A stretch of DNA of 64,000 nt. Source: a virus. This document shows, piece by piece, positions 1 to 64,000 of the stretch (position 1 is its first letter; every line of letters starts with the position of its first letter). The notes under the pieces are model-generated. The model ran no database searches, was not told the origin of the DNA, and saw only the letters and a program-made list of their open reading frames with translations. Location of the stretch: positions 160,001 to 224,000 of the IMG/VR virus record IMGVR_UViG_3300045988_160394; one strand, given 5' to 3'. Position numbers and translations under genes: made by a program.

Positions 1-878
1 TGGTTATATACTTGAACCGTATCAGAATATAAATTATATCTTACTGGACCACCACTTGTATTTGATCCTCCAGTAAAGTTAACAGTTATACTATTAGTTC
101 CATAATATATATTATCAGATACACTAGTAATTCATCCTGCTGTTAAAGTGTTTTTAGTAATTCTAGCAGAATAAACTCCTGATGCAGCTTGTGCTCCATT
201 GTTATCTCTAGCAGTAACCCAAAAGATTCTCGTTTCTCCTTCGTTACCAGCACCTATATCAAAGGCATGTGCCCTATCTGTTCCTGTATCAATAGTAGTC
301 CAACCACCATTATTAACTTGTTGTTGAAGTATATATGTTATATCTCCACCTTCATTATCTGAAGCATAACCCCAGTCTAACCATAGTTTAGATACGTTTT
401 CTGCTATATATCCATTTAGAACGCTGTCTAAATTATTACCATCTCTAATTCTTAACCATTGTTCTCCACTAGTAAAATATGGAGCAGTATTTCATGTAGA
501 TACTGAAAAAGTACCACTAACTGAATAGTTTGGAGACGTAGCATAAGCACTACAATTCCATTCAACTGATGCAGCTAAGGTTCCTCCACCAGCTCCTGCA
601 TTACCAGTTATATTAATGTTTACTGTTTTATGAGAACCTCTTCCTCACGTATTGCTGCTAGTAAAACTATATCAACCACTAGTAACTCCACCTACAGTTA
701 CTCTAGCTCTAACATAAGATCCATAACCAAAAGAACCTTCTGTTAATTGAAGACCAACTGTAACTGAATAAGTAGCTGAAGTCCCTGTTCTACCAGTTTG
801 ACTATAACTTATAGTATGTCTCCAGTCTGGACTATTACCTAATACCCTGTTATAACTATAACCTTGTAAATCAGCCAA
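1..878 (-). CDS. Fibre/receptor-binding-like structural protein, 3' end beyond the window edge (table 4 model)
   Basis: TTG start at 876-878 with AAGGAGG 7 nt upstream. The frame stays open to position 3 when the four in-frame TGA (672, 645, 492, 132) are read as Trp. Gly/Ser/Thr/Asn-rich beta-type composition like the neighbouring fibre genes. No family recognised. Confidence 0.6.
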
Positions 879-924
879 TATTATTCCTCCTTTTTTCTTT
901 CTTGTTTTATTATATTAAGGCAAG

Positions 925-948
925 AAGAGTACATATTTCAGTACTCTT
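925..948 (-). terminator. Hairpin after fibre gene 955-4158 (weak U-tract)
   Basis: Perfect 8 bp inverted repeat aagagtac (925-932) / gtactctt (941-948) with an 8 nt loop. It is followed by CUUGCCUUAAUAU and then the SD/TTG of the next gene. Confidence 0.45.
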
Positions 949-954
949 TATTGC

Positions 955-3900
955 TTATTGTATTGCAAAGAATCCTCAACCTTCGTTAGCAACACTTCTT
1001 ATTTCTATATTATTTGTATTTGACTTAACAGCCCTTCTTACAATTACATTACCATTAACTTTTAAATTTATATCTTCACTAAAATCTTCTCTAAGGAATT
1101 CTATATCTGATTCTATTCCCTTATTACCTGAATGAGTTATCATTACAGTATTATTAGATTCTCCATATAAATATCCTATAGATAATGATGTGTTCATATC
1201 ATTAATTGGATTTATTATTTTAAAACTGTTAAGGAAATCTCCATCTGGATTAAATTCAAAAGATGCACCAGATTTAGTAGTTGGTTTATGTCTACCTATT
1301 AACTTAGCAGAATTAAAAGTAAATGTTTTTTGGTTATTTAAATATTCTACATTTTTATCCCCTAAAACAAAATCTGTTTTAAAGAAAGTTTGCTGAGATC
1401 TTAATCCAATAACTTCATTTTCTGTTCCAGGAGCATGTATAGTTAAAGCATTATTATATACTTGAACATCTCCACTATCTAATGTTCCTCTAAGTAATCC
1501 TTCATAAGTACCGTTTCTAGCATATACATCTCCATTTTGTAAAACTCTAAAAGGAGCACTTTCTCTATTTTCATAACTAGAACCAGCCCAAAATCTTACA
1601 TGATTAGCTTGTTCATTTTCAGCTGGACATCACGGAGTTCTGCTTTTGGTTTCAACTTTTAACTTTTTCATTACAAAACTACCGCTAGAAATTCAGTCAA
1701 AACGAAACATTATTTCTCAATAATTATTTTTCATTTGATCACTAGTCAAAGTAAACTCATATTCTCTATGAACTATACCATTTTTTCCTTTTCCAAACTG
1801 CATATACTGATTTATTGAATCTCCGTGTCAACTTCCGCTATTCCATTGGGTTATATCTCCAGATCCTTGGAAACATATCCAAGGTCTTTTCCCTTGACCA
1901 GGGATCATATCAGAGTATTCAAAATCATATGTTACATAAATAGTATCTCCTACTTTTGCATTTTTTGGAACATTAATTCTATCATGCATTACACATCAAT
2001 TTTCTCTATTGCTAGCTTCACTAAAATCAGAATATGTTTTAATATAGCTATTTAAAGCTAAGTTTTCATTACCTATTCTTGCACCGAAGTTAGTAATACC
2101 TGCATTAGGTAATTCTACATCACCACGTATTTTTGCTTGGTTTAATATAGCTGTTCCATCTGGACTAATTTTATATCCTGTATTTAATGTTTCACTAAAG
2201 TTACCACTTCTAAGTAAACCATTTATCTCTACAGTACCTTTGTCGTTAGTTCCTTCTATTCTACTTATTGCAAAGACAGGAGTATTATCTGCACCCATTA
2301 CAGTAAGACCACTAAGTAAGTCTATACTATCTGCTTTTATAGATTTAGTATCAATAAATCCTCCGTTAATAGTTGTAGAATTATTACTATGATTAAATAT
2401 TTTCTTTAATCCTGTTTCATTATCAGCTGATAAATCATTAAAAGTAACACGGCCTTGAAGATCAATTTTATCTCCTCTTATCTTTACTCCTGATGTTGTA
2501 TTACCAGAACCATCTTGTTGAGCATATATATTAATAGCTGCTACTACTCCATCTTTATCTACTTTCATATTAATGTTATCTTCTATAACTTCTATTTGGC
2601 TAAGAGATGATGATAATGACATAGTAGTTGCTTGCTTATAGTTAAGAGCTCCTTTAAACATTTGAGCCATTAAGATTTCATAATCTTCTCCGCTTTTTTC
2701 TTTCTTATCACTAATAATAAAGTAACCAACTACTATATGATTAGCTTCGCTCCATACTAAATTACTAGGAGTCTTATTCGAATCATGAACAACAGCATCT
2801 AAACACTTTCATGTTCTAGTTCCTGTATCTGATTTTTCTTCCCAACACATTAACCACTTTCTAGAGTTTTTATCAAACACCATAAATATAACATGTTTTA
2901 AAGGTGCAAATCCATTTGGATTATACATTACTTTAGGAAGAGTTACATCTTGATCCATCCATCTACATACTCCATCTACATCGGCTGGAGTTTTATTAGA
3001 GGTTAATCCATGTAAATAAATTTCTCCATAATCTTCTGTATTAAAAGCACTATAATTAACTTTACATCTAAGAGTCATAGGATTATCAGACTTATCAGTT
3101 ATGCTTTTAATAGTTCTTACAGAAGCATTAATTCCATTAACATCTGTTTCTAATTTAACTGTTTTATTTTTAACTTCGGCAGTTTCAAATTCAGCTGTAG
3201 CATCTTCTAATACAAGACAATCTACTTCTGCTATACCGTCAGTATTATCGCTATAATTAACAATAAACATAGGAAAGAATTTTGTTGTGCCTTGAGGCAA
3301 TGCCCTAACAGAAGGGAACTTAATAGCTCCATGTATATCAGTTATAGCTGGCCTAGCTTCTTTTGCAAAATAGTGTACTTGTTCTACTCAATTACTAGAT
3401 AAAACATCATTTCACAAATAAACGTTCCCTGCTCCATCTGTTCCTATAGATTGATTAGAACTATTTCATGGTGTTAATCCCATGTAAGCTCTTTTAGTTC
3501 CTTTGGAAGGATCTTTTGTTTGTCTTGCTCTAAACTTTAATCTATATATTTTATTGTCTTCTAATTTTACTGGTTGTCTAGAGAATACTCAATGATTACC
3601 TACTATTTCTAATAAGTTGTTGCCATATATAGCGTTATTAGTTTTTATTGCTTTAACCTTACTGTCTAATTGACTACCACTATTAATATCAGCACATCAT
3701 TGGTTTTTACCATATATAAATTTACCGTCTATACCAAAATTAATATCAGGATTAATAACTTTTATAAAAGTCATCTCTTGTCTAACTGTTTTTGTTCCTT
3801 CTATATTAACATCTATAACTACTTTACCAGTGGGATCTACTCCAACCGTATTTATATAAAATGAATCTGGAGTTGGAGCTACAACTTCACAATTTTCACA

Positions 3901-4158
3901 AAGTTCTCTACGTATATAATAAGCATACTGTCCTTTAGAAGGACGATCTGGTGTTGCGGTTAAAGTTTTAGTTCCATGAACTTTTATAACGCATTTAGCT
4001 TTACCATTAGGCCCTAATTCACCAACCATTGGTTCTCCATTACTATCACAAAGTATAGTATGAGTAGGATTACTTAATGTAATAGTAAATCCATCTGAGC
4101 CGTCATATACTTTTTGTAATGTAATATGTGATGAAGCAATTATTTTGGTTTTACTCAT
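955..4158 (-). CDS. Long tail-fibre-like protein, 1067 aa under table 4
   Basis: ATG 4156-4158 with AAGGAGG upstream. Track fragments 3697-4158, 2809-3300, 1996-2670 and 976-1197 share one frame. I translated all gaps and found only TGA, 12 in-frame: 3697, 3589, 3466, 3412, 3388, 2809, 1996, 1828, 1717, 1693, 1630, 976. First TAA at 955-957, followed by hairpin 925-948. The N-terminal ~150 aa (FTITLSNPTHTILCDSNG...MTFIKVIN) is a paralogue of a module in 4240-8799. Confidence 0.75.
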
Positions 4159-4194
4159 ATTCTTTATTCCTCCTTATTAATATAATATTACCTA

Positions 4195-4230: not shown

Positions 4231-4239
4231 TTTATATAT

Positions 4240-7200
4240 TTATCCTTCAACATCAACCATAAAAATCGCCTTTTCATCGATGTCTTCTGAACTTACGTAA
4301 ATAACTTTACCAGTTCTAGACCATCCAGATATTAAGTTACCACTAGCATCTGCTTTTGTCCATTTGTAAGTATATGTTGAATTATCTCCTGCACTAGGAA
4401 TAGTCTCTAATTCTTCTCATGCACTATTATTATATTTATAATACTTAGACTTTGATTTAACATATACTACTTCACCTTGTACTCCAGCTTCGGAAGGAAT
4501 GTTTTGAACTAATCTCATAGAGTCCATATCGACACCATTACGTTTTGTTTTAGCTACTAAATAAGTTTCTCCTACTCCATTTTTAAATGTTTGACCAGCT
4601 GTTGAGAATATTATTGCTTGTACTGGATCGTTTCTATCTTCTAATACAATAGAATCTGTTTGAATTACTGTTCCTTTTTTCATAGTACATCTAACTACTA
4701 ACATTCCTGGTATTTCTTCTTGAGTTACTGTAATCTTATTACCATTGTTATTTCCTGTTATAGGTGCTGAACTTGTTCCTTTTAAATCAGCCCAATGGTC
4801 TCCAACTTTCTTTTCCCAATGATAAGATACATCTGAAGAAGTTGATATATTAGATGAACCACTCATAATAACTGCTTCTACATCTAATGATTTCATATTA
4901 CTATTATTTATTAAAGTACCATTTGGTCCCCATATATAACTTGTTATAGCATCTGTTCCGTCTGTTACTTTACTTATAGTATGAATATCATATACAGAAG
5001 CATCTGTACTTAATTGAGCTCTTATAGTAACTGTTTTTCTGTTATTAAATGAACTTACTGGAACAGTATAAGAATCTCCAGTTGTACTAGCAGGTACTCC
5101 ATCTCCAGTCCATTGTATAGTACCAGAAGTAATGTTCTTTTTAAGAGCTGTTAAAACTATACCATTAGATGGTTCATATGCACCATCTTTCTTTTGTATA
5201 ATAGAACTTCCTCCAGTAATTTGTATTACTTTAGCATGACTACCTGCTGCTCCAGCTTTAGACTTAGAGAATGAGAAGATTTTACTAACAGTGTTAGAAT
5301 CTTTTTCTATTCTTATTGTTAATGGAACTTGTCCTGAATCTTTAGATTGATTAAATCCTGTTAAAACTATACCAACGTTAGCATCTGTATCTGCTTTATC
5401 TCCAGATTCTTTTTTAATATAAGAACATGTTCCTGATCCATCTGCTAAACTTCCTGCTGTAGTTATAGTAAATTTTCCAGCTGCTAAAGAAGTTCCAGCT
5501 GTTAATTCATCCATTCCTTTAAATACTCTTACTTTAGTTTTAGCTTTACTAAGTTCTGAACTTGAAACAACTCCATTACTATCAGCAGCTAATGTTTGAG
5601 ATTCATTTGTTAAAATTACTGAATAAGTATCTGAACCATCATATAATTTAGATACAGTCATTTCATCATATATTCCATCTGCTTCATATTTAAAAACTAT
5701 AAATGTCTTGTTGCCCCAATAGCTATCTGTATGATTAATAACTAGATTTGTTCCTGTTTGTCCTTGAATAACGGTTCCATCAGCATATCATTTTCTATTA
5801 GATCCTGTAAAATTACTTTCTACAGCTGTTAATGTTATAGTAGCTCCTCCTTCTGGAGTTGTAGCTCCTTTTGGGTATTTAAATATTTGATTACCACTTA
5901 TAAATACTGTTTTAGCAGAAGATCCTGGCGTACCTTGTTTAGCTTTAGTCACACTAAATGTTTGTTTTATTGTTTGTCCTTCTACAACAATGTTTACTGT
6001 ACATGTAGCTGCGTCAGCATTGTTAGGGAAATTAGTCATAGTAATTTTAGCAGGTGATGATCCTGTTGCTTGTGTAATAGAAAATTTTGCATCACTTGGA
6101 ACTTTAGATACTTCAGTAACACTAGTTGGTGCTATAGTATTTGTCCCTTTATATACTATTATATCAGTTGTTGCAGAATTTAAGTTACTAACAACACCTT
6201 GATAATTTGCATGAACTGTATGTGATGGGTTACTTAATATTACAGTAAATGCATCTGTTCCACTTTGTCCATCTGCTAATTTAACTATAGACATTTCATC
6301 ATACATATTATTGTTTATAATATATCTTATTCTCATTACTTTATTAGAACTAGTAGCAAAGTGACCTATTGTAGGAGTAACTTCTAATGTCGCTCCTGTT
6401 TGTGCAGGTACAAAATCAACCCAAGCAGATCCATTATTATATTGCCATTTACCACCTGTTGTGTTATATAAAGTTCTAGAAACTGTTATTGAACTAGGTG
6501 TAGGTATTCCTATAAAGTTTGGACCATACTTAAATGTTTGTTCCCCAGAGATTTTAACATAAGCCGCATCTGTTCCGTCTATTCCGTCTCGTCCATCGCT
6601 AACTACACTTATTGTTTGTGTATCTACTAATGTAGTTCCATCAGTTAAATATAACTCACATTTAATAGCTCTAGCATCGCTTGGAACAGCAAACTCTTTT
6701 CTAGATTCATTAGAGCCAGATGTATATACTGCTGCACCAAAATTAGTTCCGTCTGTTGATTTGTATATTTTAAATCTACCAGAATAAGCAACTAATGCTT
6801 GAGCACCTGTTTGGCTCTTTGCTTCATACACTACAGATGAAGGATTTAATTGACCATTATTATTCTTACTAATAGATGTAGCACTAGGTATTAGCCAATA
6901 ACTAGTAGAATCTACCCCGTTAACCCCTTGCTTATTTTTAGCTATACTAAATACTTTTGAATAAGTAACGCCATTGTATTGAGCTTTTAAGGTAACATTT
7001 CCAGTATCTTGAGTTAATCCTGAAACAGTAAAAGTATTACCTGACATATTTCCTACTACACCTGAACTTGGTAGTGCAGAATATGTTACTCCTTCTGTTA
7101 TTAATTCATGTCCTTTATATAATTCTATAGATGTTGAACATCCTGCATAACTAGTTATAGTTCCTGTAGCTGTTGCTGGTAATGAATGATATTCATTTGT

Positions 7201-8799
7201 TAATACAGCTATATAACTATCTTTACCTTGTTTACCATCTTTAGCTTTAGATAAAGACATTACTTTTTTATAAACTACTCCTTCGCAATTTACATTAATA
7301 ACTAAAGCAGCTGCATCTGCTGTCATTCCTGTAATTTTAATAACATTGTTACTTAATTGATAAGTAACATCTGAATTATTATCTATTGTTATCTTATATT
7401 GTCCAGTTGATGGAGCACCAGTTGTTATAGTAAGTTTGTTTAATCCTCTGTAAGCTGTTATTTCATTAATAGCCCTATCAGATTCTCCTTCTTTAAAGCT
7501 TCCATCATGATTACATGCTATTACGTGAGATTCATTTGATTGTTGAACAACTATAGAATCATGTCCATCCATTAATTTAGTAATAGTTATTTCATCTGAT
7601 AAAGTATCTTTTACAGTACATCTAAATGTAATAGAGTTGGCTGCATTAAAATAACTATCTGTTGCATTTACTGTTAAGGATTTAGATGTTTGTCCACTAA
7701 TTAAATTTCATGAACCATTAGCATAATATGACCACTTATAAGTAGGATCATTCACATTGAAAGTAGAAGCTTCTAATACTGCTTTTGAGACATTAGGATT
7801 AGCTGAGTTTTTATCATATTTAAATACAGTAGAACCCTCTTTTAATGTTAAAGTAATATACTTAGCTGATTCTCCATCTGCTCCATCATTACCGTCTGCT
7901 CCATTAGTTCCGTTATATACTTTAGAGAAAGTCATTAATTGTTCTACTTCACTTTGTCCTTCAAAATTAAATATAACTTTTACTTTACCGCCATTAGATA
8001 AGTTTTTAGCAGAATTTAAAACTTCTGATTCTAATTCCCCACTAGCCGCAACATTTGCAACTGGATTAACTAAAGTATCTATATAAAAAGTATCGTTATC
8101 TTTTTTTACAGCTGTACAATTTTCAGGTTCTATTTTTATAGAATATTGACCTTTAGAAGGATTGTCATTAACAGCTGTTAAAAGATCTGTTCCTTTGTAT
8201 GCTATTGTATCTGAATAAGCTCTACCATTTAAGCCTATTTCTCCTATATCAGCAGTTCCGTCATGATTACATATTATTGTATGAGTTGGATTTGTTAGTA
8301 TTGCAGTATAAGCATCTGATCCATCGTTACCTTGTATAGTTAAAGTTAAATCTATTTCTGTTATTTGTGTATGAACTTCAGGCATCCAATTTTCTTTAAA
8401 GTCTACTTCTGTTTTGAATGTAACTCCTGGATGATTGTTGTTCATTATATTACTTTTTATTTTCAATCCTGAGAAGAATGGTGATGTACCAATTAATTCA
8501 TATTCACTCATGGAAGGTGTTATTTTTACATATTCCTGACTAGGAGCTAATTTTACATACCAATCAACTCTACTTACAACAGTTCCTGGATGTAATACTA
8601 AGTTTGTATTATCTCCTATTTTACTTAAGTCAGCTGATAATATAACATTGTCTCCTGTATGACTATAGTCTGGCACATACGTACCATTATTATTTAAATA
8701 TTGAACTCTTGGATGTGAACACCCTATATAACTTCTTAAAGATACAGCATCATTTAAATCTACAATTGTTATTTGAGATGACGCTAAAAGTTTTGCCAT
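4240..8799 (-). CDS. Long tail fibre with tandem beta-sandwich modules and short Gly-X-Y linkers, 1519 aa under table 4
   Basis: ATG 8797-8799 with AAGGAGG upstream. Fragments 7708-8799, 5788-7572 and 4417-5661 are in one frame, joined by TGA at 7708, 5788 and 4417. The gaps have no TAA/TAG. TAA at 4240-4242 is followed by a strong terminator. Repeated (S/T)(I/V)LTNExH...G modules. Confidence 0.8.
4417..8330 (-). repeat. Tandem ~90-110 aa beta-sandwich-type modules separated by short Gly-X-Y runs in fibre gene 4240-8799
   Basis: Recurrent module starts: GSDAYTAILTNPTHTIICNHDG, GHDSIVVQQSNESHVIACNHDG, GKDSYIAVLTNEYHSLPA, GTDAFTVILSNPSHTVHANYQG, GSDTYSVILTNESQTLAADSNG. Linkers include GTNGADGNDGADGES (about 7880-7925), GRDGIDGTD and GKQGKD. 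Confidence 0.65.
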
Positions 8800-8813: not shown

Positions 8814-10436
8814 TTAAATATCATTTATTTCGCAAGTAAACGTAGCTTTTTGATAAACATCATTTGTAGTTATGTTAATAAATTTTACACCCTTACCTTT
8901 TGTATTGTTCCATAGTTCATCTTCTTCTGTATTTTCACTTTTTCTTTTCCATACAAATTGAGAAGCATTCAATTGATCAGTAACATTGTTTTTACCTTTA
9001 AACACAATAGCTTTTAATTGAGTATCTACTATGCTATTTTTAAAAACAATTCCGTTAGAAGAAATTATATCTATTTTTCATGCTATATCAGAAACGCCTG
9101 CTACATCTTCATATTCATCTTCATTATTGATTAATATCTTAAGTTTTTTTGCTGATATGCTTACATTACCATCAGCATCTATATGAAATGTTTTATCTCC
9201 ATATTTATTATTAACTAATAGGTTTCTACCTTCAATATATTCTCCTAATAGCTTACCAGTTTTAATATATGACGCATTAAAATAAAAGTTCTTATTACCA
9301 TGCTCATCTATATCAACATACATACCTTGCATTTTGCCATTATCAGTTAATGATCCAAACACTTCTTCATGTGTATTTCCTACTTTATGATCTAATGCAT
9401 CTTGTATATCTTCTATAGCTATTTCTCATTCTGTTGGTATTATATAGTTTTCTAATTTTGTATTAGTAACTAAAAAGTCAAATGTACTATTTTCTTCTCC
9501 AGAAATAATTGTTTCTATTTTGTTAGTATCTTGTAAAGAAGTAAATGTTATTGTTCAAACTTTTTTATAATTTGTTATATCGAATGTTTCTTCTTTTATT
9601 AATGTTTTTATATTATTTTCATTAATAGAATAAAAAGCTACAGTCATATTACCATTTGGAGCTGTTGATTGTAAATATACTTGTGACAATATTTGAAAAG
9701 AATAATTACTTTTTGGTAATGCATTGCATATTTGAGATAATCCGCAGTAATCAGAACTAGCTATATTTGACCTTATTCTTGCTCACTTTTTACCTGATAA
9801 ACTTTCAAACTCTATTGTAGGTCTTCCTGCTTTTGTCCAATAATCCAATGTCTTTTTATAGAAGTTAGAGTTTCTAAGCAGATTTCTTCTGTCTTTACCA
9901 GCTACCGTAACTTCTACCCACATCTTTAATGAATTGTCCCACATCATTAATCTAGGAGGAATAACTGAATTATCTAATCATAAATCTCCATCTTGAGGAT
10001 TACTAGGAGGAGTAGGACTACCTTGTAAATCATTTACGTCAATAAAACTTACATAATCAGTTGCAACTAATTGTCTTTTACCATCTACTAATCCATATAC
10101 TTCTACTTGTATTTTAGCTTGCTTATTTATTTCTTCTTTTGTTAAGGTAAAGCTTTTTTGATTTAAATGTTTATTTCCTCATTCTAAATCTTCTTCATAT
10201 TGTTCACTTGATACAGTAAATCTTTTTCAAACAATATCTGAGAATTTAGCTGTTATATCTGTTAGTCCTTTTCATACAACTAAATGTATATCAGAAGTTT
10301 TATCAGTTGTTCCAAATATATTACCATTAGAACTAAATATTTGTGCTTTGTAAATAGCAACATCTTCTATAATTTGAATTGTAATGGACGCTCTAGATAG
10401 AACGCCCCTATGTGAATAACTTTTTCCAAAAAACAT
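8814..10436 (-). CDS. Structural protein of the fibre cluster, 540 aa under table 4
   Basis: ATG 10434-10436 preceded by AGAGGTG, which overlaps the upstream TAG. Only 94 aa and 63 aa pieces appear in the track. I translated the whole span: 8 in-frame TGA (10272, 10227, 10179, 9978, 9783, 9555, 9426, 9078) and no TAA/TAG until 8814-8816. Function not recognised. Confidence 0.7.
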
Positions 10437-10447: not shown

Positions 10448-12052
10448 CTATTCTTTTTTTGGAGTAGATTTTAATATTTTATCTTCTTGAGCTATAGTAA
10501 ATGCTCTCATTTCAGATGCTGTATTCATAACTTCATGATAATCATATTTACTTATACCTGCATTTTTTAATGCTACAGAAGCGTCTCTTATTTCATCTTC
10601 TAAAGGCATACTTCTTAATAATGCTGACCTATTCATTATTGCTTCTGCTGCTGTTTTGTTTAATAAGTCTACAGAGAATGTAGCTTTATTATCTATATGT
10701 TTAGGTTCTATTTTTATAGTTCTAGTAGACTTTCTAGGGAAGTTATTATTAGATGTATATTGAGGATCTTTTACATCTATGAATTTTAATACTTCATGTT
10801 CAAAATACATATTTTCTATCTTCTCTCCTAAAGCATCTATTCTATACCAATAATAATCAAACATTGTATTATATCTATCATCATTATTTTCAAATAGTTC
10901 TCCTTTATAAGTAACTACTGCTGATAATACAGTACCTGGAGCATCCATGCCTTTATATAGTTTATCTCCATTAGAACTATGAACATAACATTGAGTAGGG
11001 TCACTATAATCGTAAATAGTTTCTAATGCACTTTGTTGAGAATCAGATATAGTATCATCTGTTATTGTTAATTTAAATATTTCAGAACCAGCTACTAATC
11101 CTGGTCTTACAAATAGAACTGTTCCACCTTTAGCGTTTTTTGTTTTTTCTGTTCTTGAAATATTACCTTGAGGGTCTCTTTCTACTATTCTATGAATTTC
11201 ATAGAATTCATTCCATTGGTTTTCATCTTGAGTAATTGGGTCTAAAACAGTTCAACCTTTTTCTGTTTTCATAAACCATTCTACTTTTAAGTTAGAAGAA
11301 CCTGAAGATAATAATTTGTCTAAATCTACCTTAGTTCCTTCACTAAAATATTGAGCTTCTAATCTTAATGTTTGTTTATCATCAGCATTATAAAAACTAT
11401 TACCATCAATAGAATTTATAAACGCTTTAGATGTTCCCATACCAGTAGATAAGTTATTTATTTGCATATCATATGCAACTGGTATTCTTATATCTGCAAA
11501 AGGATCATGGAATGAGAATTTAACCAATATAGATTTCATTTGGTCTTTTTCTAAAATGTTGTCTTTAATTACTAAAGTTCTCATATCTGAAACAACTATT
11601 TCATGTTCTTCAGCATTTCTATAATTCCAAGTATGTGAGAATTGTTTTTTATGTTCTTCATTACCTTCTATATCTATAAGAGTTTGATTATTGGCACTAT
11701 CTACTAAATACCATTTTATATCTTCTATATAAGCCTTATTTATTCCTACATCACCAGGTGCATTTAAATTAGGATATTCTTTTGGGTCAAAAAGGTCTGG
11801 ATTATATTTATTACTTTGAGGACCTCTGTATATATTAGTAGCTATCATATATGGTCTAATAACTAAATTGCTTATTTTTCAGTCAGGGTTATATGGTTGA
11901 TTGCTTCCTGTTATATAAGCTTGAGATTTAGAACCATTAACTATTGTTAAGTTACCAGCTAAATTGGAAGCGTCTGTTTGGTCAGTTACTGTTATTTGAG
12001 CAGTAGCCAAAACTTTATAGTTTGGATCTGCTGATAATGGATTAAAAAACAT
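10448..12052 (-). CDS. Structural protein of the fibre cluster, 534 aa under table 4
   Basis: ATG 12050-12052 with AAGGAGG upstream. Fragments 11252-11848 and 10448-10948 are in one frame. In-frame TGA at 11881 and 11252. TAG stop at 10448-10450. Function not recognised. Confidence 0.7.
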
Positions 12053-12672: not shown

Positions 12673-12700
12673 AAAATTAATCACCTCTTTTATTTATTAT

Positions 12701-54200: not shown

Positions 54201-57200
54201 AATTTTTTCGTTAATGTGTTTTAGTACCGTTCTTATATCTCTTCCATCACTACCTAATCTTTTCTTTACTTCAGGAAGCATTCTTACTGGTTTTATCATT
54301 TCTCCTAAAGTTGGATTAAGTATAGCTCCTCAAGGAGTACCTTCAGTAAATAGTTTTCCTGTTAAAGGATAAGGTCTATCATCCATATGTTTTTTCTCTA
54401 ACCAATATGGATCTAAGAATGCTCTTATAGGACTTAGAGGATGTCTAATTGTTGGTATTCAACTATGTTTCCATTTTTCATTTTCTGAACCATATATACT
54501 AACGTCTTTATAATTACTATGAGCTCTTCTTAAATAGTTAGGTTGATAGTATTGAACTGATCCTCCTCTAAATTCATTAGCTGAACCAAAGCCCCAGAAA
54601 CGTCCTCTTCTAACAACTGATACTCCATTTTCATATCATTCTTTTCTTTCATCAGCATCTTGAAATTCATTTGTTCCTGTCCAATACTCTCCTATTATAG
54701 ATGATTCTTTAGCTCAGTTAATAGCTTGACCTATACCAGTAGCATAAGCTAATTTTCTTGCTGCTATATCTACATTGGAAACTGCATTAGCTGCTGCTCC
54801 AGTAATAGAAACTCCAGTAAAGTTTTCTGATTCAAAATTAAGATAATCATATAGCTTATAAGCAGCCATTACTGGCAATACTCTTTTAAGACCTATATTT
54901 TTAATTAATTCTAAAGTAGAACCTGTATTTTCTGATGATAGATTTAATCCTACTCCTTCTAATCCTCACATTAATCTTGCAACCATAAATTGAGGTATTT
55001 GAGTAAGGGATGTGTAGTTGCTTAAATCACCATTTCTACTAGCTAGTATTTCCTTACCTGCTTGGCCTGCTAATTTAATAGCATCGTTTATTGATTTGAT
55101 TTGTCCTAATCTTGATAAAGCAGATTCTCTATTAAAAGTATAGTTGTCATACTCATTTATATAAGTTTCATTTAAACTACCAAAAGTCTTATCATAAATA
55201 TTAGTTCTAGATCCTAAATCGTCTATCATATTTATGTATTCTTGTTTAAACGTAGGACTAGTAGTTAATAAGTCATCTAGTTTTTTTAATGGAGAACCTT
55301 CTCCTATTAATTGATTAAGATGCAAATCCTGGTCAAAGTCATTATAGATTTCTAAGTTCTTTTGCATAATAGACCAGTTAGCAAGATATCTTAAATTCTT
55401 TTGTTGTTCTAAAGTTAAGTTAGAGTTTTGTAGAACCTTTTCTAAATTAACTATTCCAGATTTAACTCCACCATTAGATTCTCTTAACATAACTTCTTTA
55501 AGAGCTTCTCTTCTAATAACGTTTTCTGCATCTAATACATTAGTAGACGAAACAGAATATCCAAATATACTTTTACTATCTACTTGAGATATGTTTTGCA
55601 TATTCATTAAATGGTCTATATTAGATAAACCTTTATTAAATATATTGTTTAAATCCTGATTAAAGAAATTACTTTCTCCTGAATTATTTATTAAATGTAA
55701 TAATTCTTCAGCATTTTCATACTCTTTATTATTTAAAATATTAAGTATTCTTAACGATTCTTTATCTGTTATTGCTCCAGAATGTATCAATGAAGATATA
55801 GAAGAATCAGTCACTTGTTGAGAAGCAGTTATATCATTTAATATAGATGATAATTTTTTATTATCTTCTAATACCATATTTGCTATATTTGCAGAAGCTT
55901 CTAATAAACTTTCTTCTGAAAAATCCATTCCTTTTGCTTCAGCATAAACGTAAGATAGTTGATCTATTTTTTCTTCTGTACTTAAATCACTACCTATAAA
56001 TCTTTTTACTCTTAATAGCTTGTCTTTAACTCTATCTTGGTCTTTCTTACTATTGCCAGTAAAAATGTCTTTTATTTTATTAAACATAGTATAGGAACCA
56101 GTTTGATCAATGTCTAATTTTTTAGCAAGCTCATTATCACTTGCTGTTAATATGTCTTTATTAGTACCTAAGAACTCTTTTGTTAATCTAGCCCCTTTAC
56201 CATGCATATTATTATTTATAATACCATCTGCTATCTTATCTGAAAGAACTAAATTGCCTTGTTCATCTAAAACAGTTTCAAACAACTTTGCTTTTTTAGT
56301 ACTAGCGTTACCTATAGCTATTTTAGAAGTGAAAGCAGTTGTACTAGTATTTCCTTCTTCATAAGCTCCTAATAATGAAGTATTTAAAGCTTTAAAGTTA
56401 ACGAATATAGGATTACTCTTTTTTAATTTTATAGCATCTGTTAATCCAAATATTCTACCTAGAGTACTTACTGAAAAGTCATCTATAGCTTTATTAGCCA
56501 TATCTCTTACTTCGGCCGTACTATATATTTCACCATTTCTATTTATTCTAATAGCTTTATCAAAGATAGTATTGTCATCTAATTCAGGCATTTTATCAAT
56601 AAAGTCTTTTAAATTCTTTTTGACTAATCTACCATTTTCATCTTTAGTTACATAATCAAACATTCTAGGATTATAGTCTTTAGACTCAGTAAACTTTTTA
56701 AAGTCTCCAAGAGTCATTGCTTTATCTCCAGAAAATAATAGTTCACTATCTATTTCTAAACCTAAAACATTCTTTGCGAATTTATCTACTTTACCAAAGA
56801 TAGTATCACTTGTTTTCTTATTATCTAATAAGCTATTTCTTAATTCTTTATCTACTTGTTCTCTTATCTTTCTAGTCTTAGAAAAGTTATTTCTTACTTT
56901 TTCAGATATATCTTTTTTAGAATTATATATATATTCTAAGAATTCTTGTTTCTCTTCATTAGAGAAATTCATCTTATTGAAATGCTTATCTAAGAAATTA
57001 GAAAAAGCTATCTTATTATCTTTAGATACTACTGCATTTTCATTTATTTTTTCATAAGCCTCTAAAGCAGTATTTTTAATCGTAACTGGATTTCTTTCGA
57101 TGTTTTCTTTTTTTGTATATTTAGCAATAAGCTTAAATACTTCTTGTTTCTTTAATTCAGTTTCATAGTTAGCTTTAATACCTCTAATAGCATCTGAAGC

Positions 57201-57575
57201 TCTTACTTGATCTATGTTTTTTATTTGACCAAATAAATTATTTTTTCTAGTACTGTTAAATTTAAAAGAATCTTTTCTAAGTTTTCTTTCTTCTTCAAAA
57301 GTCTTTTTGCCTAATCGGAAAGCATCTCTTAAATCTTCACCAATAGTTCTTTTATCTAATCCTGTTCTAGTTGCTTTTAAATCTCTAAGCTCTTTATTAG
57401 CTTTTTTAATAGCCGTTTTAGCAGAAGGAATAAATTCACTTGATAAAGTTCTTTTTAAAGATGTATTATTAAAAACAGCTGCACCGCCTCCTATGGCTAA
57501 TGCAGCTGCTCCAACTTTGGCGACTTTACTAACTGTAGAAGAATCTCTTTCTTTATCTCTTCTTTTTTTAGCCAA
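51210..57575 (-). CDS. 2121 aa protein in the tape-measure position (putative tape measure / tail-lumen protein) (table 4)
   Basis: TTG start 57573-57575 with AAAGAGGTGA 5 nt upstream. Fragments 54966-57575, 53544-54299, 52353-53372, 51639-52100 and 51309-51542 all have a start coordinate = 0 mod 3. I translated all gaps. Thirteen in-frame TGA: 54966, 54714, 54636, 54459, 54330, 53544, 53427, 52353, 52347, 52161, 51639, 51567, 51309. TAA at 51210. Hydrophobic Gly/Ala-rich segments near the N-terminus (VAKVGAAALAIGGGAAVF) and the C-terminal third (GAEVGAVLGSLAWGW, GKGAAIGALVGLGVSAI). It lies after the chaperone-like genes, as in sheath-tube-chaperone-tape measure modules. Confidence 0.55.
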
Positions 57576-57597: not shown

Positions 57598-58392
57598 TTA
57601 TCTCAAAGCCACTGGTACTGTACTAGCAGATTGACTTTCATATCCAGTAAACATAGCATCGGCATCCCAATCTATATCTGGATACATTTTTCTAAAATCT
57701 AAGTATTGTTTATACTCACTTTCAGTCATTTCTCTTGATCCAACTTTTATTTTAGCAGAGCCATCTGAATAATGTTGAGATGCTTTTTGTTCTACATGCT
57801 CTTCATCATTTTCATCATGGTCTTCATAATATTCTTCTTCATCATCTGTTTCTATATTAGCTCTTAAGAAATCTGCTAAATCATTTTGTAATTCAAGATT
57901 TCTAAATGTAGTTAAGTTATATTCTGCTTTTACAAACATCTTGCAGAATTTAATCATATCTCATTCTTCTATTTCTTCTATTCTATAATTAGGGAAAGCT
58001 TCTGCTATTATACAAGTCATTTGTGAATCCATCTCTTGTAATTCTTCCCTAAAAGAATTTAATAACTGTAGTATCTGATCTGCTCTTAAAAATGAGTTAT
58101 CTAATATTTGTTCGTAAAGTAAGCTAGGAATGCCTGCTTCTATTTCATCCAAATCAATTTCAGTAGGATATAAAAGGGTAGCTTCAATTATTTCATCTTC
58201 TTTCTCTATTTGTTCAAGCTGATTATTTAATATAATGCTTTTATATTCTTTTCTATTAAGAGGTCTATATATGAAGTTATATCCTCCTATATCAGCAAAA
58301 AAAATAACTTCATGTTTAGACATTAAATCTTTAACTACTGCATCGAAATCAGCTTCTTGTTGTCTATTTTTAGAAGCGTTTGATATTTTCAT
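57598..58392 (-). CDS. Tail assembly chaperone-like protein with acidic C-terminal extension, 264 aa if TGA 57961 is decoded
   Basis: ATG 58390-58392 with AAAGGCGGT upstream. The 143 aa N-terminal part is a paralogue of 58396-58812 (VIFFADIGGYNFIYRPLNRKEYKSII vs VFITEISGTDLQIIWKRLKRSEYKEIL). In-frame TGA at 57961 joins it to fragment 57598-57957. It occupies the position between the tube genes and the tape-measure-position gene. TAA at 57598. Confidence 0.5.
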
Positions 58393-58395: not shown

Positions 58396-58812
58396 TTATA
58401 CCGCCTTTGTGCTTGTTATACCAAATCCAGTCTTTATCATTGTTTCGGATGCTATATAGTCAGATATACCTGCAAAGTCTTCTATTAATTCGTCTACATT
58501 CTCAGGATAAAGTATTACCTTCTTTGCAAAAGCTTCTTGTTTTTCATAAAAAGCTAAATCTGGATCTTCAGAATAAGTATCAGTTAATATCTCTTTATAT
58601 TCACTTCTCTTTAATCTTTTCCATATGATTTGTAAATCTGTACCAGATATTTCAGTTATGAATACTTCTTTTAATTTATATTTTTCTTTTAATTCCTCAG
58701 CTATCATTTCTATTGGTTTTGTTTTCTCAACCTTAACTTCTTCAGAAGTTACTTGATCTTTTATAACTTCTTCTTTTTTTGTATTATTTTTTTTCATTCT
58801 TAAATCCTCCAT
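58396..58812 (-). CDS. Tail assembly chaperone-like protein (paralogue of 57598-58392)
   Basis: Intact ORF. GGAGGA sits 7 nt before the second ATG (58795-58797), which is therefore the likelier start. TAA at 58396. The call rests on its position and its similarity to the next gene. Confidence 0.5.
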   Translation of the reverse strand: MEDLRMKKNNTKKEEVIKDQVTSEEVKVEKTKPIEMIAEELKEKYKLKEVFITEISGTDLQIIWKRLKRSEYKEILTDTYSEDPDLAFYEKQEAFAKKVILYPENVDELIEDFAGISDYIASETMIKTGFGITSTKAV

Positions 58813-58840: not shown

Positions 58841-59905
58841 TTAAGATTTGCTTATATACATAGTACAACTTTTATTAACTTTAAATACTGTATCTATTTC
58901 TGTTCTATATAAGCTGAATTCTAGAGAACAATTTATACCTTTTCCAGAATTAATTTTAGAATTTAGTTTTTCTATGTCACTTTTATCAGTTATTCTGCAT
59001 ACTCATCCTTGATCACAATAAGTTAGCGTATATGTTTTAGATAAGTTTATTTTACTATCAGAAATAGTTAATTTAATATTATTAATCTTATCTCCGCTTT
59101 TCTTATTTATTATTTCAGGAAATGCTACAGAAATTAAACAATTATCTTTGTCTAATTTTCTTAATGCAATATTAGTAACGATAGCTAAATAATTTTGATT
59201 ACCTAACGCTTTACTCTTTGCAGTATCAACATCACTTTTATTTTTCTCTTCTACAACAACATAATCATATTTATTATTTGCTGATTTTAAATTAGGATTA
59301 GGAGTTGGAGTATTATCTTTAACATTGCCATCTTCTTCAGTCTTTTTATAAGATAAGTTTCTTGCTATAAAACTATATACTTCTGCTATAGGTTCTCCAC
59401 TAGTGTCAAGAACTTGTTGATACCCTGTTATATAAACTCCTTCTATAACTTGGAATGTTGCATTATATGATGTTTCATTACTTACGTTATATCCACCATA
59501 TCCTATCACTATATCAAAACACTTTCTAAATAAAGCTGCATTTAATGGATCACATGAAACTCCAACTTTGTCATAAGGATTCGCTATAGATGATTCTGGT
59601 ATACGTTCTAATAAATTAGCTATATAACCTACTTCTGTAAAGTTAATTATAAAAGTACCTTCTACTAATTTCTGTCCAATAATTATTCTAGATGGAAGAA
59701 AGCTATTAAAACCATATATGGGTTTTTTCTGTTCAGTATAAGTAAAATCAATTCTAGCTATATCTATTATTCTTTCTCCACCAATAAACATTTCTGCATC
59801 TATTGAAGAGAAATACCTTTTATGTGTTCCAGCATATTTAGTTGTACTAGTAATTAAGTCTCTATCACTAGCTTGTACTCCATACGTAAAATAAGGCTTA
59901 GCCAT
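58841..59905 (-). CDS. Tail tube-fold paralogue 3, 354 aa under table 4
   Basis: ATG 59903-59905 overlaps the upstream TAA (TAATG). SSIDAEMFIGGERIIDIARIDFTYTEQKKPIYGFNS...GQKLVEGTFIINF aligns with the tube GGSDIVATFNGKTIGELQAITYSITREKVPVYTMGS...GKRGIAGNLVFITF. FDIVIGYGGYN... aligns with FDITITFANEYG. In-frame TGA at 59003 adds 53 aa. TAA at 58841. Confidence 0.6.
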
Positions 59906-62460
59906 TAAATCACCTCCAAATCTATTGAATAAGCTTTTGTATTTAGATTATCCATTATTACAAATCCTGATTTTATTACAGGATTACTATCTATCATATA
60001 AAAAATATTTATATCATAATTGTCATTTATAATTGCTGAGTTAGAATCATAATGATACACATTATAACTATCTTTTTTAATGCATATTTGAATAAGTTGA
60101 GAATCGTTTGCTTTATCAAAAATGATTGTTTTATTTTTAGAATCATATATTGCTTTTTTATACTTTTCTTTATTTATACATTTTTCATTAAAGATAGTCT
60201 TATATAATTCATAAAGCAAATCAAAACTATCACTTTTTAATGATAAGATATTTTGAGCATAAGATGGCTCAACATTTTTTACAAATGTATTCTCACTATT
60301 TACTATAGATGATACATCTGATAAATATCCTTTTTTATTTATATTGCTTTCTATTTTTTTTGTAATCATATTACAATCGTTATTCTTTAAATAATTATTA
60401 ACATCATTACTATCTTCTAATAAAGATACAAAACCTACATCTGAAATAATACTGTACTGTTCGTTTTCTATTCATAATGCAAATATATCATCTTTATTAA
60501 TAGCTGTTAAATACTTATTTAATACTAAAGTTTTATCTTTATCTGTAAATTTTATTTTTCTAAAAGTTGTAGTATCTAAACATTCACTTAATTTAGATAT
60601 GCATAAATAATATATATTATCTTTGTTTCCTAAGTTTTCTATATAATCAACATCGGCTATTAAATCTAAAGATTCATTTATATATCCACCAGGAGCTTTT
60701 AATAAATATATATCTTTATCTTTGTTTTCTTTAGCTGTTAAACATTTTAAAGATAAATTAGATAATTTAGAATTACTTAAAGACGGTGTATCGTATTTTT
60801 CTAATGTATTAACACTATTATATATATTTTTTAAGAAACCTTTGTCATTGTCTGAAAAAGAATAAAAACAATATCTTGGTGATTTAATATTGTTATTATT
60901 TATACCTATTACATTATACAATGTATTACTTTTTCCAGTGTATGTTACTTCAGTAGGATAAGAAAGTGTAGATTCATAATAATTTTTATTATTTCTATCT
61001 ATAAAAACATTTGCTTTTATAACACCATTATTAAATTTAAATGTATTGCCAAATACATTATCTATTTTTTTTGTTGGCATGTAATCATAATTATCACTAT
61101 TAATAGAAGATATAAATTCGTTATTATATTTTACTGCCATTAACATTAGTTCTTTTGATTTTATATCTTTCTTACTACTAAGAGTATTTATAAAGTTTTC
61201 ATCTTTTAATTCATCTAAAATAGGAATATATGAATTGAAATCACTTGCTAATAACATTTTATTGTTCTTTACATATTCTTTGTATTGATTAACAAAACTA
61301 TCTTTAACTTCTAAAGTTCTTACTTTAACACTTTTACTAAAGTTATTATCTAGTTTTGTATATATAAGATAATCTTGATTACTTTCTAAATTATTAAAAG
61401 TACATCTTCTAGATATTAACTCTTGTTCTATCTTTTTATTAGTAGCAATATCAATACAAACACATGTATCATGGCTACTATTGTTAGACATAACTTTTAT
61501 AGAACTATTAGTAACTAATTCTATAATAGGAGCATCATCTGATATTGTATTAAACACAATAACTTTATTAACAGCAAAAGTAGCTGTATTTGATAATGTT
61601 TGACCTTTATTATGATATCAAGCGGAATACTCTCCAGGTTTCATATAAGCATAATGTGTTTTACTTTTTTCATTTATTTGTACTTCTTTAACTATATTAT
61701 TAGTTTTTCTATCAGATATAGATATAGTACCTACTACTTGATTTGGCGAAAGATAAAACTTAACCAAACCTTCATCTTCATTTGAAGAAGGTTGTTCAAC
61801 TATTGCTGATAAGTATATCTTTTTAAAATTGTTTGAATTAGTTATATTATTTATATCATGAATAGACTCTCCTAGATTGTTAGGCTTAGATATATTTCTA
61901 TTTGGATGAGTAGAAATAACTTTATTATTTTTATTAGATTGATTACTTCCTACTTCTATTCCTTTTCTTAATGGTTCCATAGCTGTAGCTACAAATTGAT
62001 AAGTATTTTCTGTATATAAATCGTTGATTGACATAACTTGTCCTTCATTAATTATTCTTAATCCATATATAGCCATTCTAGAAGTTCTTCCGTATTCGTT
62101 AGCAAATGTTATAGTAATATCTAAAGCAGGTAATTCATCAGGAAGAAAGAATTCTTTACCTGTAGCGGTTTTTAAATCATCAAACATCTCTGTTGCAAAA
62201 TGCTGATCGAAAACAGCAAATACTAAAGATCCAGCAATTGTTCTTTGACCTAATGTATAATCTAGAGCATTAGCACTTCCAATAACTCTAACTGGTTTTT
62301 TATCTTGGTGAGTAGAAACAGATAAAGTTTGAATAGAGCCTAATGTATAAACTTTTTCAGCAACGTTACCATTAGCTCCAGTTACAACATTTAATCTAGC
62401 AGTAACAACTATATCACAACCAGAATAACTGTCATATCCTTTTATTTCGAATTTAGCCAT
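59905..62460 (-). CDS. Tail tube-fold paralogue 2 with ~650 aa C-terminal extension, 851 aa under table 4
   Basis: ATG 62458-62460 with AAGGAGGA upstream. The N-terminal ~190 aa is paralogous to the tube (LDITITFANEYGRTSRMAIYGLRIINEG vs FDITITFANEYGNKASTVLYGVELLNEG). Fragments 61618-62460, 60472-61557 and 59905-60369 are in one frame, joined by TGA at 61618 and 60472. I translated both gaps. No SD precedes the internal GTG 61557 or ATG 60369. TAA at 59905. Confidence 0.65.
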
Positions 62461-62508
62461 TATATATCCTCCTTTTTTATTTTAGATATAGCTTTAATAT
62501 ATGTTTAC

Positions 62509-62540: not shown

Positions 62541-62546
62541 AAAAAA

Positions 62547-63212
62547 CTACCAAGTAGTACTTATGAAACCTTTGTTATTATCATCAATAGGCTTCATTGA
62601 ATCTACTGATCTACAAACGAAAGTATAAGCTTTTTCAGATGTAGGAGCATCAATAGAGAAACCTGTTCCTTCATTCAATAACTCTACTCCATATAAAACA
62701 GTAGAAGCTTTATTACCATATTCATTAGCAAAAGTGATTGTAATATCGAATGGTAATAGTTCATCAGCGTATCTTGGTTTAACATTTTCTGCAACTAGGT
62801 CAGAAGGAGTTTTACCTGTAACACCAGCTCCAGTATTAGTACCAGAAGATAGACTAGTCATGTGCTTATCCCATTCTTCAACTGAAGTAAATTGTAAAGC
62901 ACCATTATCATCTGAAGTTTTGAATACATTTGCATGGTATTTACTGATTCCTGGACCATCTGATAATTCAACCATTAATGCGTCTCTATTGAAAGTAATG
63001 AATACTAAGTTACCAGCTATACCTCTTTTACCTCTTGAGAAAGATCTAGGCTCTGCACTACCCATAGTGTAAACAGGAACCTTTTCTCTAGTAATTGAGT
63101 ATGTTATGGCCTGTAACTCACCAATTGTTTTACCATTGAATGTAGCAACAATATCGCTACCTCCAAAAGTAGTATAAGTCTTCTTATATTGTTCTGTGGA
63201 CATGTTAGCCAT
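62547..63212 (-). CDS. Major tail tube protein (XkdM-like pattern)
   Basis: ATG 63210-63212 with AAGGAGG upstream, immediately downstream of the sheath gene. It has the GGSDI.A.FNG..IGELQAI.YS..REK.PVYT.GS motif I associate with contractile-tail tube proteins. TAG stop 62547-62549 is followed by a perfect 10 bp hairpin plus a U-run. Confidence 0.7.
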   Translation of the reverse strand: MANMSTEQYKKTYTTFGGSDIVATFNGKTIGELQAITYSITREKVPVYTMGSAEPRSFSRGKRGIAGNLVFITFNRDALMVELSDGPGISKYHANVFKTSDDNGALQFTSVEEWDKHMTSLSSGTNTGAGVTGKTPSDLVAENVKPRYADELLPFDITITFANEYGNKASTVLYGVELLNEGTGFSIDAPTSEKAYTFVCRSVDSMKPIDDNNKGFISTTW

Positions 63213-63259
63213 TAGAACATTCCTCCTTTATTATATTCATAAACAATATATTTAATTAT

Positions 63260-63281
63260 AAGAGGGGATATACCCCTCTTA
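63260..63281 (-). terminator. Hairpin between the sheath and tube genes (possible attenuator/weak terminator)
   Basis: An 8 bp GC-rich stem, aagagggg / cccctctt, with a 5 nt loop. The downstream tract UAUAAUUAAAU is only moderately U-rich. Confidence 0.45.
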
Positions 63282-63285
63282 CATA

Positions 63286-64000
63286 TTAGTTGCTTTCTTG
63301 TACAGAAACAGTGTTTCTAACTTCTTTGATTTCGTTATAAGGGATAACAACGTATTGTATCTTGATTATACCTAATCTAGCAGAAGCAGCATCTGTTACT
63401 ATATTGAATTTGTAGTAGCTGATTAATGATTCTTTTAACTTATTTAACATAGATGTTATAGCTGTAGTCATAGAGTTTCTGTTAGCTAAGTTATCTTGTA
63501 ATCCAATAAATGGTTGAATTACTTCTCTTAAACTAGCATCAACTATATTTATAACCTTAGCTGTAGATAATCTTCTGTAAGCAGAATCAACTGGTGCCAT
63601 TGTTATACCATCTGTTATAACAGTACCATTAGTTGTATTCTTAACAGTAACTATACCTTTACCTGTTAATTGGCTTAATTGATAGTTTGATAATTCAAAC
63701 GCTAAAGTTGGTAAGCTTATAGGTTGGTTAGTTGAAGATCTATCAGCTGCTAAAGTAGAAACCATACCAGCGTATCCAGCTGCACCATTAGATACATAGT
63801 TATATCCGTTACCAGTTGTAACTACATATTGCATGAATGGAACTGAGATTCTCATTCCTATTGGATGAGGCATGTTATTGTTGTTTAACATGTTATTACC
63901 GTTAGGTCTCTTAGCATATAAGTCTAAGTCTAAAGATAATACTTCATTAACTCTTGCTGCTACTGTTGATAAGTTAACACCATTTAACTTAGCACATCCT
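63286..64000 (-). CDS. Tail sheath protein, C-terminal part (5' end beyond the window edge)
   Basis: The frame is open from 64000 down to TAA 63286-63288, so the track ATG at 63891 is internal. ...YRRLSTAKVINIVDASLREVIQPFIGLQDNLANRNSMTTAITSMLNKLKE... resembles the conserved sheath C-terminal domain. A tube gene follows. Confidence 0.65.
   Translation of the reverse strand, partial: GCAKLNGVNLSTVAARVNEVLSLDLDLYAKRPNGNNMLNNNNMPHPIGMRISVPFMQYVVTTGNGYNYVSNGAAGYAGMVSTLAADRSSTNQPISLPTLAFELSNYQLSQLTGKGIVTVKNTTNGTVITDGITMAPVDSAYRRLSTAKVINIVDASLREVIQPFIGLQDNLANRNSMTTAITSMLNKLKESLISYYKFNIVTDAASARLGIIKIQYVVIPYNEIKEVRNTVSVQESN

Follow-up and report, generated by a model that had tools for sequence, protein, structure and literature searches.

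TGA as a Predicted Tryptophan Codon across the Tail, Baseplate, and Fiber Genes of a Jumbo Myophage

The DNA considered here, 64,000 nucleotides (nt) from positions 160,001 to 224,000 of the IMG/VR virus record IMGVR_UViG_3300045988_160394, is referred to in its entirety as the window. Its GC content is 28%, with the plus strand consisting of 41% T, 31% A, 17% C, and 11% G and the coding (minus) strand being purine-rich, and its long open reading frames (ORFs) are all found on that minus strand. If solely TAA and TAG are taken as stop codons, then the minus strand resolves into 28 consecutive ORFs, g01 through g28, which cover 98.6% of the window and of which two are cut by the window's ends. 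In-frame TGAs which are read through number 91 and are spread over 21 of these 28 genes, and the residue which homology leads one to expect at these sites is tryptophan (Trp; W).

A public metagenome contig of 263,172 bp includes the window at 100% identity (ENA ERZ1756024 NODE_19_length_263172). Contigs of 262 to 264 kb recur in several samples, and this recurrence suggests a complete genome of approximately 263 kb. Matches to PHROG families identify a sheath (g01), tube-like paralogs (g02 through g04), a baseplate wedge (g14), a virion structural protein (g15), and tail or fiber proteins (g23, g24); the window itself consists of structural genes only. Directly upstream of the window is a capsid gene, and its product matches the capsid protein of Moorella phage MTATph1 at 52% identity and those of the Bacillus jumbo myophages 0305phi8-36, KLEB27-3, and WH1 at 37 to 41% identity, with these matches spanning 83 to 97% of its length. 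Judged by such similarities, the window makes up the block of tail, baseplate, and fiber genes of a predicted ~263-kb gut-type jumbo myophage that is related to 0305phi8-36 and MTATph1. A preliminary description of this DNA, made from its letters alone, had spoken of a phage-borne recoding of TGA, and the ‘phage-borne’ portion of that statement is borne out by the sheath, tube, tape-measure, baseplate, and fiber genes along with the capsid's relationship to Bacillus and Moorella jumbo myophages. A GenBank search for near-identical phages returned none, the sole match being one of 107 nt to a Bacillus jumbo phage. A scan of IMG/VR using the single g18 protein similarly provided no match, although an alignment-based scan did give matches.

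The 28 ORFs amount to 21,029 codons. In their own frame (frame 0) these include 92 TGAs and neither a TAA nor a TAG, versus 2,238 and 2,367 TAA plus TAG codons in the two off-frames of the same ORFs. As one of the 92, that at 8823, is located upstream of the real start of g26, i.e., an ATG at 8799 which is supported by a Shine-Dalgarno (SD) sequence, the true in-frame count is 91, which is an exact version of the earlier assertion that TGA, at about 91 sites and never TAA or TAG, is the only interruption. Gene calling under translation table 11 yields 62 ORFs of at least 60 amino acids (aa), averaging 274 aa and covering 80% of the window, versus 28 such ORFs, averaging 743 aa and covering 97%, under table 4. 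Table 4 is better, that is, in terms both of mean length and of coverage, and the expected replacement of dozens of fragments by 28 genes is what is found. The Trp content of the window is 0.96% if TGA is counted as W versus 0.52% if it is not. Runs of consecutive fragments falling within the same frame had been offered as evidence as well. Here the frame continuity across TGAs stands, but numbers of fragments per gene undercount numbers of TGAs, as for example with g07, which possesses 13.

The terminal stops, all 27 of them, are TAA (22) or TAG (5), with TGA never a terminator. At three junctions (59905, 30694, and 25625) stop and start codons overlap as TAATG and at none do they overlap as ATGA, a combination which is consistent with TGA as a non-terminator. 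SD matches of at least 6 nt, such as AAGGAGG or GAGGTG, are seen at 18 of 27 gene starts, and matches of at least 4 nt at 24 of 27. The preliminary description had every TAA- or TAG-terminated gene end followed by an SD and a start codon or else by a terminator, and an SD is indeed what most of these starts display, which is not true, however, of g05, whose start (58812) is without an SD. With first start codons following TGAs, by contrast, SD matches of at least 5 nt are seen at 6%, against a background of 3% for internal ATGs, in agreement with the contention that such starts lack an SD (the ten coordinates that had been listed for them are exact, 10 of 10). The sole strong SD found following a TGA is that of the real start of g26. 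Two starts were corrected in the course of this work, that of g26 from 8835 to the ATG at 8799 (SD, AAGGAGG) and that of g23 from a GTG at 12684 to an ATG at 12672 (SD, GAGGTG).

What residue is read at TGA can be approached using orthologs from syntenic relatives which lack in-frame TGAs, i.e., relatives which use the standard code (loci L001, L004-L009, and L028-L031). The tape-measure comparison is based on the DNA of 19 orthologous loci, and the all-gene comparison adds standard-code loci for the baseplate and fiber region. The genes are taken up in the following in their order along the minus strand, starting with g01 (63286..63999). This is the C-terminal part of a tail sheath protein (phrog_16991, E=6e-37), is cut by the window end, and has no TGA; the full-length sheath gene encodes 976 aa in L016 and L003. 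Following it is g02 (62547..63212), encoding a tube-like protein of 221 aa (phrog_9206, E=1e-48) with no TGA and two TGGs. Next, g03 (59905..62460; 851 aa) is a paralog with the tube domain and a long extension, possessing TGAs at 61620 and 60474 that both lie opposite W in standard-code orthologs, and g04 (58841..59905; 354 aa), a third tube-like paralog which overlaps g03 as TAATG, has a TGA at 59005 that lies opposite T, I, or A, in a variable region. These three genes are tandem paralogs with a common tube-like N-terminal domain, that of phrog_9206, which PHROGs labels as ‘major head protein’, and the C-terminal extension of g03 is approximately 670 aa long. Two genes then occupy the chaperone position. 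The first, g05 (58396..58812), is small, called on the basis of its ORF and of synteny upstream of the tape measure, and without TGAs, while g06 (57598..58392; 264 aa) has a TGA at 57963 that is found opposite W in its nearest standard-code relatives.

Gene g07 (51210..57575; 2121 aa) is tape-measure-like, both by its position and by its full-length homologs of 2100 to 2170 aa, and has 13 TGAs alongside 9 TGGs. Among the 19 orthologous loci this gene falls into two states, 14 having no in-frame TGAs along with 19 to 28 TGGs and 5 having 12 to 20 TGAs. Standard-code orthologs display W almost throughout at the 13 columns where g07 has TGA, with 6 of these columns invariantly W; other residues (Y, F, L, H, S, R, and Q) appear there in the more distant sequences. 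Within the recoded clade, moreover, TGA and TGG swap at the same conserved tape-measure columns.

Following the tape measure is g08 (50874..51188), encoding a small membrane or coiled-coil protein of 104 aa with a TGA at 51104; a PHROG that is spanin-like matches it weakly (E=6e-4). Then come two giants of about 3,000 aa which are conserved in all relatives. The first, g09 (41942..50782; 2946 aa), is virion associated and has 5 TGAs and 9 TGGs, 2 of the 5 TGAs lying opposite W and the others in variable regions; its orthologs are 2,916 to 3,028 aa long in all relatives examined and 3,119 aa long in the distant L010. The second, g10 (32939..41893; 2984 aa), is of the baseplate or hub region, with a faint match to DUF6046, orthologs of ~3,000 aa, and 7 TGAs versus 29 TGGs, and orthologs cover only its two N-terminal TGAs, which are found opposite W and L. 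Three smaller genes are next: g11 (32564..32926; 120 aa), an ORF with a GAGGTG SD and no TGA; g12 (32021..32554; 177 aa), an ORF with an AGGAGG SD and TGAs at 32191 and 32170 to which standard-code ortholog coverage does not extend; and g13 (31510..32031; 173 aa), which has an ortholog in L030 and no TGA.

With g14 (30694..31494; 266 aa), a J-like baseplate wedge gene whose ortholog matches phrog_6, baseplate wedge, the single TGA (31224) is opposite W. The virion structural gene g15 (25625..30694; 1689 aa; phrog_21059 via its ortholog) has 7 TGAs and 8 TGGs, and all 7 of the former lie opposite W in L030 and L028. Both TGAs of g16 (23781..25625; 614 aa) are opposite W in its nearest standard-code relative, as are the three TGAs of g17 (21923..23773; 616 aa), a gene without TGG, in three standard-code loci. 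Conserved and of the baseplate region, g18 (19381..21906; 841 aa) has 416 homologs, and its TGA at 21084 coincides with an invariant W column (W275 of alignment A2). The TGA of g19 (18933..19379; 148 aa), at 19358, also lies opposite W.

The fiber-like g20 (13535..18844; 1769 aa) has 8 TGAs and 4 TGGs and consists of three repeated modules of approximately 540 aa, with a module motif, YFExIKSxG, at residues 318, 871, and 1407. These repeats are seen by motif search, a BLAST self-comparison of g20 for internal repeats having returned nothing. They supply an internal control, as a position common to the repeats reads TGG in the first copy (FKQWLRDNP) but TGA in copies 2 and 3. No match to g20 exists in the standard-code relative L030, where orthologs of g19 and g23 instead are adjacent. 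Genes g20 through g22, apparently absent from L030, look like a lineage-specific fiber insertion, though one in which g20 carries its 8 TGAs. The other two members of this putative insertion are g21 (12974..13531; 185 aa), an ORF with an AAGGAG SD, and g22 (12745..12945; 66 aa), likewise an ORF, both of them without TGAs.

Tail-fiber-related g23 (12067..12672; 201 aa), whose ortholog matches tail fiber PHROGs, has 7 TGAs and no TGG, and all 7 are opposite W in L030 and L028. The tail protein gene g24 (10448..12052; 534 aa; phrog_3267 via its ortholog) has two TGAs, one opposite Y or W and the other opposite W, and g25 (8814..10436; 540 aa) has 8 TGAs and 5 TGGs, with 6 of the 8 opposite W, one opposite Y, and one opposite F. 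At their C termini, g23 and g25 have ~88 aa in common. Repeat-rich g26 (4240..8799; 1519 aa), a fiber gene, has 3 TGAs and 13 TGGs and has its N-terminal domain in common with g27 (955..4158; 1067 aa), which is of a fiber or receptor-binding type with 12 TGAs and 7 TGGs; the shared domain is approximately 150 aa long at 41% identity, and repeat units of g26 are joined by short DGxDGxD motifs. For g27, 4 of 10 covered TGAs lie opposite W, with the others found in a weakly aligned region of ~27% identity. Lastly, g28 (1..878) is N-terminal, belonging to an ORF of ~1,136 codons which extends past the window end; this ORF has 16 TGAs in total, 4 of them inside of the window, the continuation being supplied by L022, which at the g28 end is 100% identical to the window.

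Taken over all genes, a standard-code ortholog is available for 70 of the 92 candidate TGA sites, with sites lacking one found in g10, g12, g20, and g28. Of the 70 covered sites, 51 have W as their majority residue and 8 have Y, F, or L, whereas the background frequency of W in such proteins is 1.1%. Protein homology thus runs in frame across TGAs, and full-length orthologs span them, as should be the case if TGA is a sense codon, while the majority of covered sites, by their TGG-encoded W, bear out the suggestion that Trp is what it specifies. Homology-based expectation, that is, is of Trp at these sites.

Other meanings of TGA are known, and one of these is glycine, as specified by table 25 in phages of Absconditabacteria and Gracilibacteria. 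Table 25 phages do exist, TGA recoding is by default labeled as Gly in a recent survey of jumbo phages, and in the relative L026 there is one TGA column at which all other sequences have Gly. The 283 residues that could be aligned opposite window TGAs nevertheless include W in 182 cases, Y in 18, L in 14, F in 10, and just one each of G, C, and R. Given that standard-code orthologs of the tape measure have a Gly content of 7.4%, this residue is strongly depleted at TGA sites. Gly, and along with it Cys, Arg, or selenocysteine, is excluded by these residues as the general meaning of TGA, and the chance that one of these is what TGA specifies here is vanishingly small.

A different possibility is that TGA continues to serve as a stop codon, subject to low-level natural read-through, such that the table 11 fragments are the main products and the long ORFs are but rarely expressed. 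Near-cognate reading of UGA by tRNA-Trp is known in some Firmicutes. Trp is the residue which natural UGA read-through would insert, and the sequence searched revealed no dedicated tRNA (below), both of which fit with such leakiness. The fragments, however, are without SD and start signals, TGA is never a real terminator in 27 genes, and TGAs are found at invariant Trp columns. Furthermore, there are many TGAs per essential virion gene, the tape measure having 13, g27 having 12, and both g20 and g25 having 8, so that even 10% read-through per site would result in a negligible yield of full-length protein. With up to 13 TGAs per essential gene, leaky read-through is rejected as the main mechanism and, overall, this explanation is highly improbable. 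Efficient TGA decoding, by the same argument, is required, since read-through of that sort cannot supply essential virion proteins carrying this many TGAs.

Relatives of this phage differ in how they employ TGA. All tested members of the window's clade, which display 59 to 97% tape-measure identity, are TGA-recoded, with TGA representing 50 to 77% of Trp codons in the tape-measure gene. The nearest other clade, at ~55% protein identity, has no in-frame TGA in approximately 22 structural genes, neither as sense codon nor as stop, and in more distant relatives TGA serves as the stop in 1 of 10 genes. As three successive outgroups use the standard code, the window's lineage is derived from standard-code ancestors. 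There is in addition a second recoded lineage, L036, with 20 TGAs in its tape measure. In neighbor-joining (NJ) analysis, a distance method as applied here to one gene, L036 is sister to the standard-code clade (L001, L004, L008, and L035) in 200 of 200 bootstraps and never groups with the window's clade, a placement which implies either two gains of TGA or instead one gain along with full reversal.

Codon usage within the window speaks as well to history. TGA there constitutes a fraction of 0.46 of TGA plus TGG, versus 82 to 98% A in the twelve other A/G-ending codon pairs. TGG-to-TGA replacement under AT pressure, in other words, is incomplete in the window, and this incompleteness is better fit by a recent takeover than by long residence in a natively table-4 cell. 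The latter nonetheless deserves consideration, since the phage could be following the code of its host, whether Mollicutes-type or some other recoded gut bacterium, without a switch of its own. Table-4 bacteria typically are as low in GC as the window (28%), at least one TGA is found in 21 of 28 genes, and two further observations, the want of a suppressor tRNA in ~105 kb and an in-frame TGA in the primase of a close relative, such that TGAs are not limited to late genes, also favor such a host. At this GC content, though, a natively table-4 host would be expected to give rise to TGA dominance among Trp codons, which is not what is seen. Also speaking against it are the syntenic relatives at ~55% protein identity, which have no sense TGA whatsoever, the nearest cultured relatives, which infect Bacillus and Moorella, and a related contig that is binned with Clostridium. 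A natively table-4 host consequently is viewed as unlikely.

That related contig was the one result of a scan of GTDB for host clues and, being binned with a Clostridium sp. metagenome-assembled genome (MAG), is weak evidence. Together with the strong SD motifs (AGGAGG and GAGGTG) and the Bacillus and Moorella phage relatives, it points indirectly to a Firmicute as host, and that host probably uses the standard code, for which the under-use of TGA is a further indirect indication. The full explanation that is preferred here, and which is considered likely, is of the tail block of a ~263-kb jumbo myophage in which TGA specifies Trp (table 4) and only TAA and TAG are stops, with the switch in code imposed by the phage on a standard-code Firmicute. 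Under that explanation the phage would convert the infected cell to TGA=Trp, most likely by means of a phage-encoded suppressor tRNA-Trp with anticodon UCA. Release factor 1 (RF1) or a tryptophanyl-tRNA synthetase (TrpRS) might serve as helpers, as have been reported for the Jade phages, and these putative decoding genes would be located in the remaining ~160 to 180 kb of the genome. According to the published model, TGA-bearing late proteins would be made only after the code switch is in place.

Three observations count against this explanation. First, neither ARAGORN, applied to the window plus 35 loci, nor Rfam, applied to 127 kb, found a tRNA or an Rfam RNA family, with the RNA-searched sequence of the window's own lineage consisting of the window, its 10-kb flanks, and the downstream region of one relative, i.e., ~105 kb or ~40% of the genome. 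Second, genes for a release factor or TrpRS were not encountered in the window or the other regions examined. Third, in L033, a close relative with a 264-kb genome, recoding reaches beyond structural genes. Downstream of the region equivalent to the window, L033 possesses a primase gene (19533-20543 of L033), homologous to phrog_16345 (match 43-335), and adjoining it a gene for a DnaB-like helicase (20560-21675). The helicase gene has no TGA and 4 TGGs, but the primase has an in-frame TGA at residue 285, inside of the matched domain. Recoding thus would not be strictly confined to late structural genes, which weakens for this lineage the idea of recoding as a ‘late-gene timer’.

For decoding, the model with the best support is one from the literature. 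Among gut phages with TGA=Trp, 35% of genomes were found to have suppressor tRNAs (Borges et al., bioRxiv 10.1101/2021.08.26.457843). The same work describes two Firmicutes-infecting Jade phages with a tRNA-TrpRS-RF1 ‘code change module’ which is itself encoded in the standard code and found upstream of the lysis genes, and it had already reported TGA-to-Trp recoding in large AT-rich gut phages, TGA-depleted standard-code relatives, and repeated recoding among relatives (bioRxiv 10.1101/2021.08.26.457843). The preliminary description's characterization of such recoding as known but uncommon is in agreement with that study (Borges et al., bioRxiv 10.1101/2021.08.26.457843). Mean genome sizes given there for large TGA-recoded clades are 154 to 210 kb, though with an ambiguous mapping of sizes to clade names (bioRxiv 10.1101/2021.08.26.457843), and the window phage, at ~263 kb, is above the largest listed mean (210 +/- 35 kb). 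Jumbo-phage surveys also report stop-codon recoding to Trp, and proteomic validation of recoding in phages has been published only for TAG=Gln.

Among the Borges clades (Jade, Sapphire, and Agate) it is Jade that is closest to the window phage. Held in common are TGA opposite Trp, a large genome, low GC, and recoded structural genes; standard-code close relatives that have shed TGA stops; and recoding that arose more than once. Firmicutes are the predicted hosts of Jade, as inferred for the window phage, although this likeness is one of features rather than of terminase phylogeny. The two differ in that the ‘code change module’ of Jade, i.e., suppressor tRNA, TrpRS, and RF1, did not turn up in the ~105 kb of the window's lineage and in that, unlike the late-gene pattern which Borges and colleagues described, the primase of the window phage's close relative is recoded as well. 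The journal version of that work reportedly is found in Nat Microbiol, 2022.

Additional systems can be compared with. The crAss-like phages reassign opal (TGA) or amber (TAG) within blocks of late genes (Yutin et al. 2021, PMC7886860; Mgcod preprint 10.1101/2022.06.29.495998). This is the same stop reassignment in gut phages, and it similarly fragments standard-code gene calls, but crAss-like phages are podovirus-like with Bacteroidetes hosts, whereas the window phage is a contractile-tailed jumbo phage with strong SDs and with relatives infecting Firmicutes. With the cultured phages 0305phi8-36, vB_BauM_KLEB27-3, and MTATph1 the window phage shares its capsid (37 to 52% identity) and its module of sheath, tube, and giant tape measure, and the likeness extends to their genomes, which are 177 to 234 kb in length. 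While the window's lineage reads TGA as Trp, there is no sign of a non-standard code in those cultured phages, their coding not having been checked. Mycoplasmatales and Entomoplasmatales and their phages display the same TGA-to-Trp reassignment and are AT-rich as well. There the whole cell is recoded, RF2 has been lost, and TGA is the dominant Trp codon. With the window phage, by contrast, fewer than half of Trp codons (46%) are TGA, and its sister phages lack TGA.

A broader account can be put together from these results, though it is a doubtful one. By it, TGA would have been captured for Trp at least twice within one ~260-kb jumbo family, or instead would have been gained once and then completely reverted, with recoding reaching a replication gene. 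Were the full genome then to turn out to be without a tRNA(UCA), decoding would be via an undescribed mechanism or, alternatively, would depend on a host, a gut Firmicute, in which TGA already specifies Trp.

TGA-to-Trp recoding as considered here is an additional case of a documented phenomenon rather than a new principle, and it is for annotation that it matters. Any table-11 annotation of this phage is wrong, in that virion proteins of 2,000 to 3,000 aa are split into dozens of fragments. Public assemblies L017-L021 in fact keep such fragments, the tape measure being split there into 869, 51, 251, and 339+ aa; g18 is found in a public database as a 547-aa table-11 fragment (P0130); and the g28 table-11 fragment 672-878 is present in public assemblies, whereas other public entries (L016, L003) translate with W at TGA. 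This phage, moreover, is abundant in public data, as 127 blocks of the public collection include the exact sequence of its tube protein, g02. Of the additional results, the most useful is that code states within one phage family form a graded series, i.e., from a standard code with some TGA stops, to a standard code without TGA, to TGA=Trp at 46 to 77% of Trp codons. Two separately placed recoded lineages along with this graded series make the family a good system for the study of stop-codon capture in phages.

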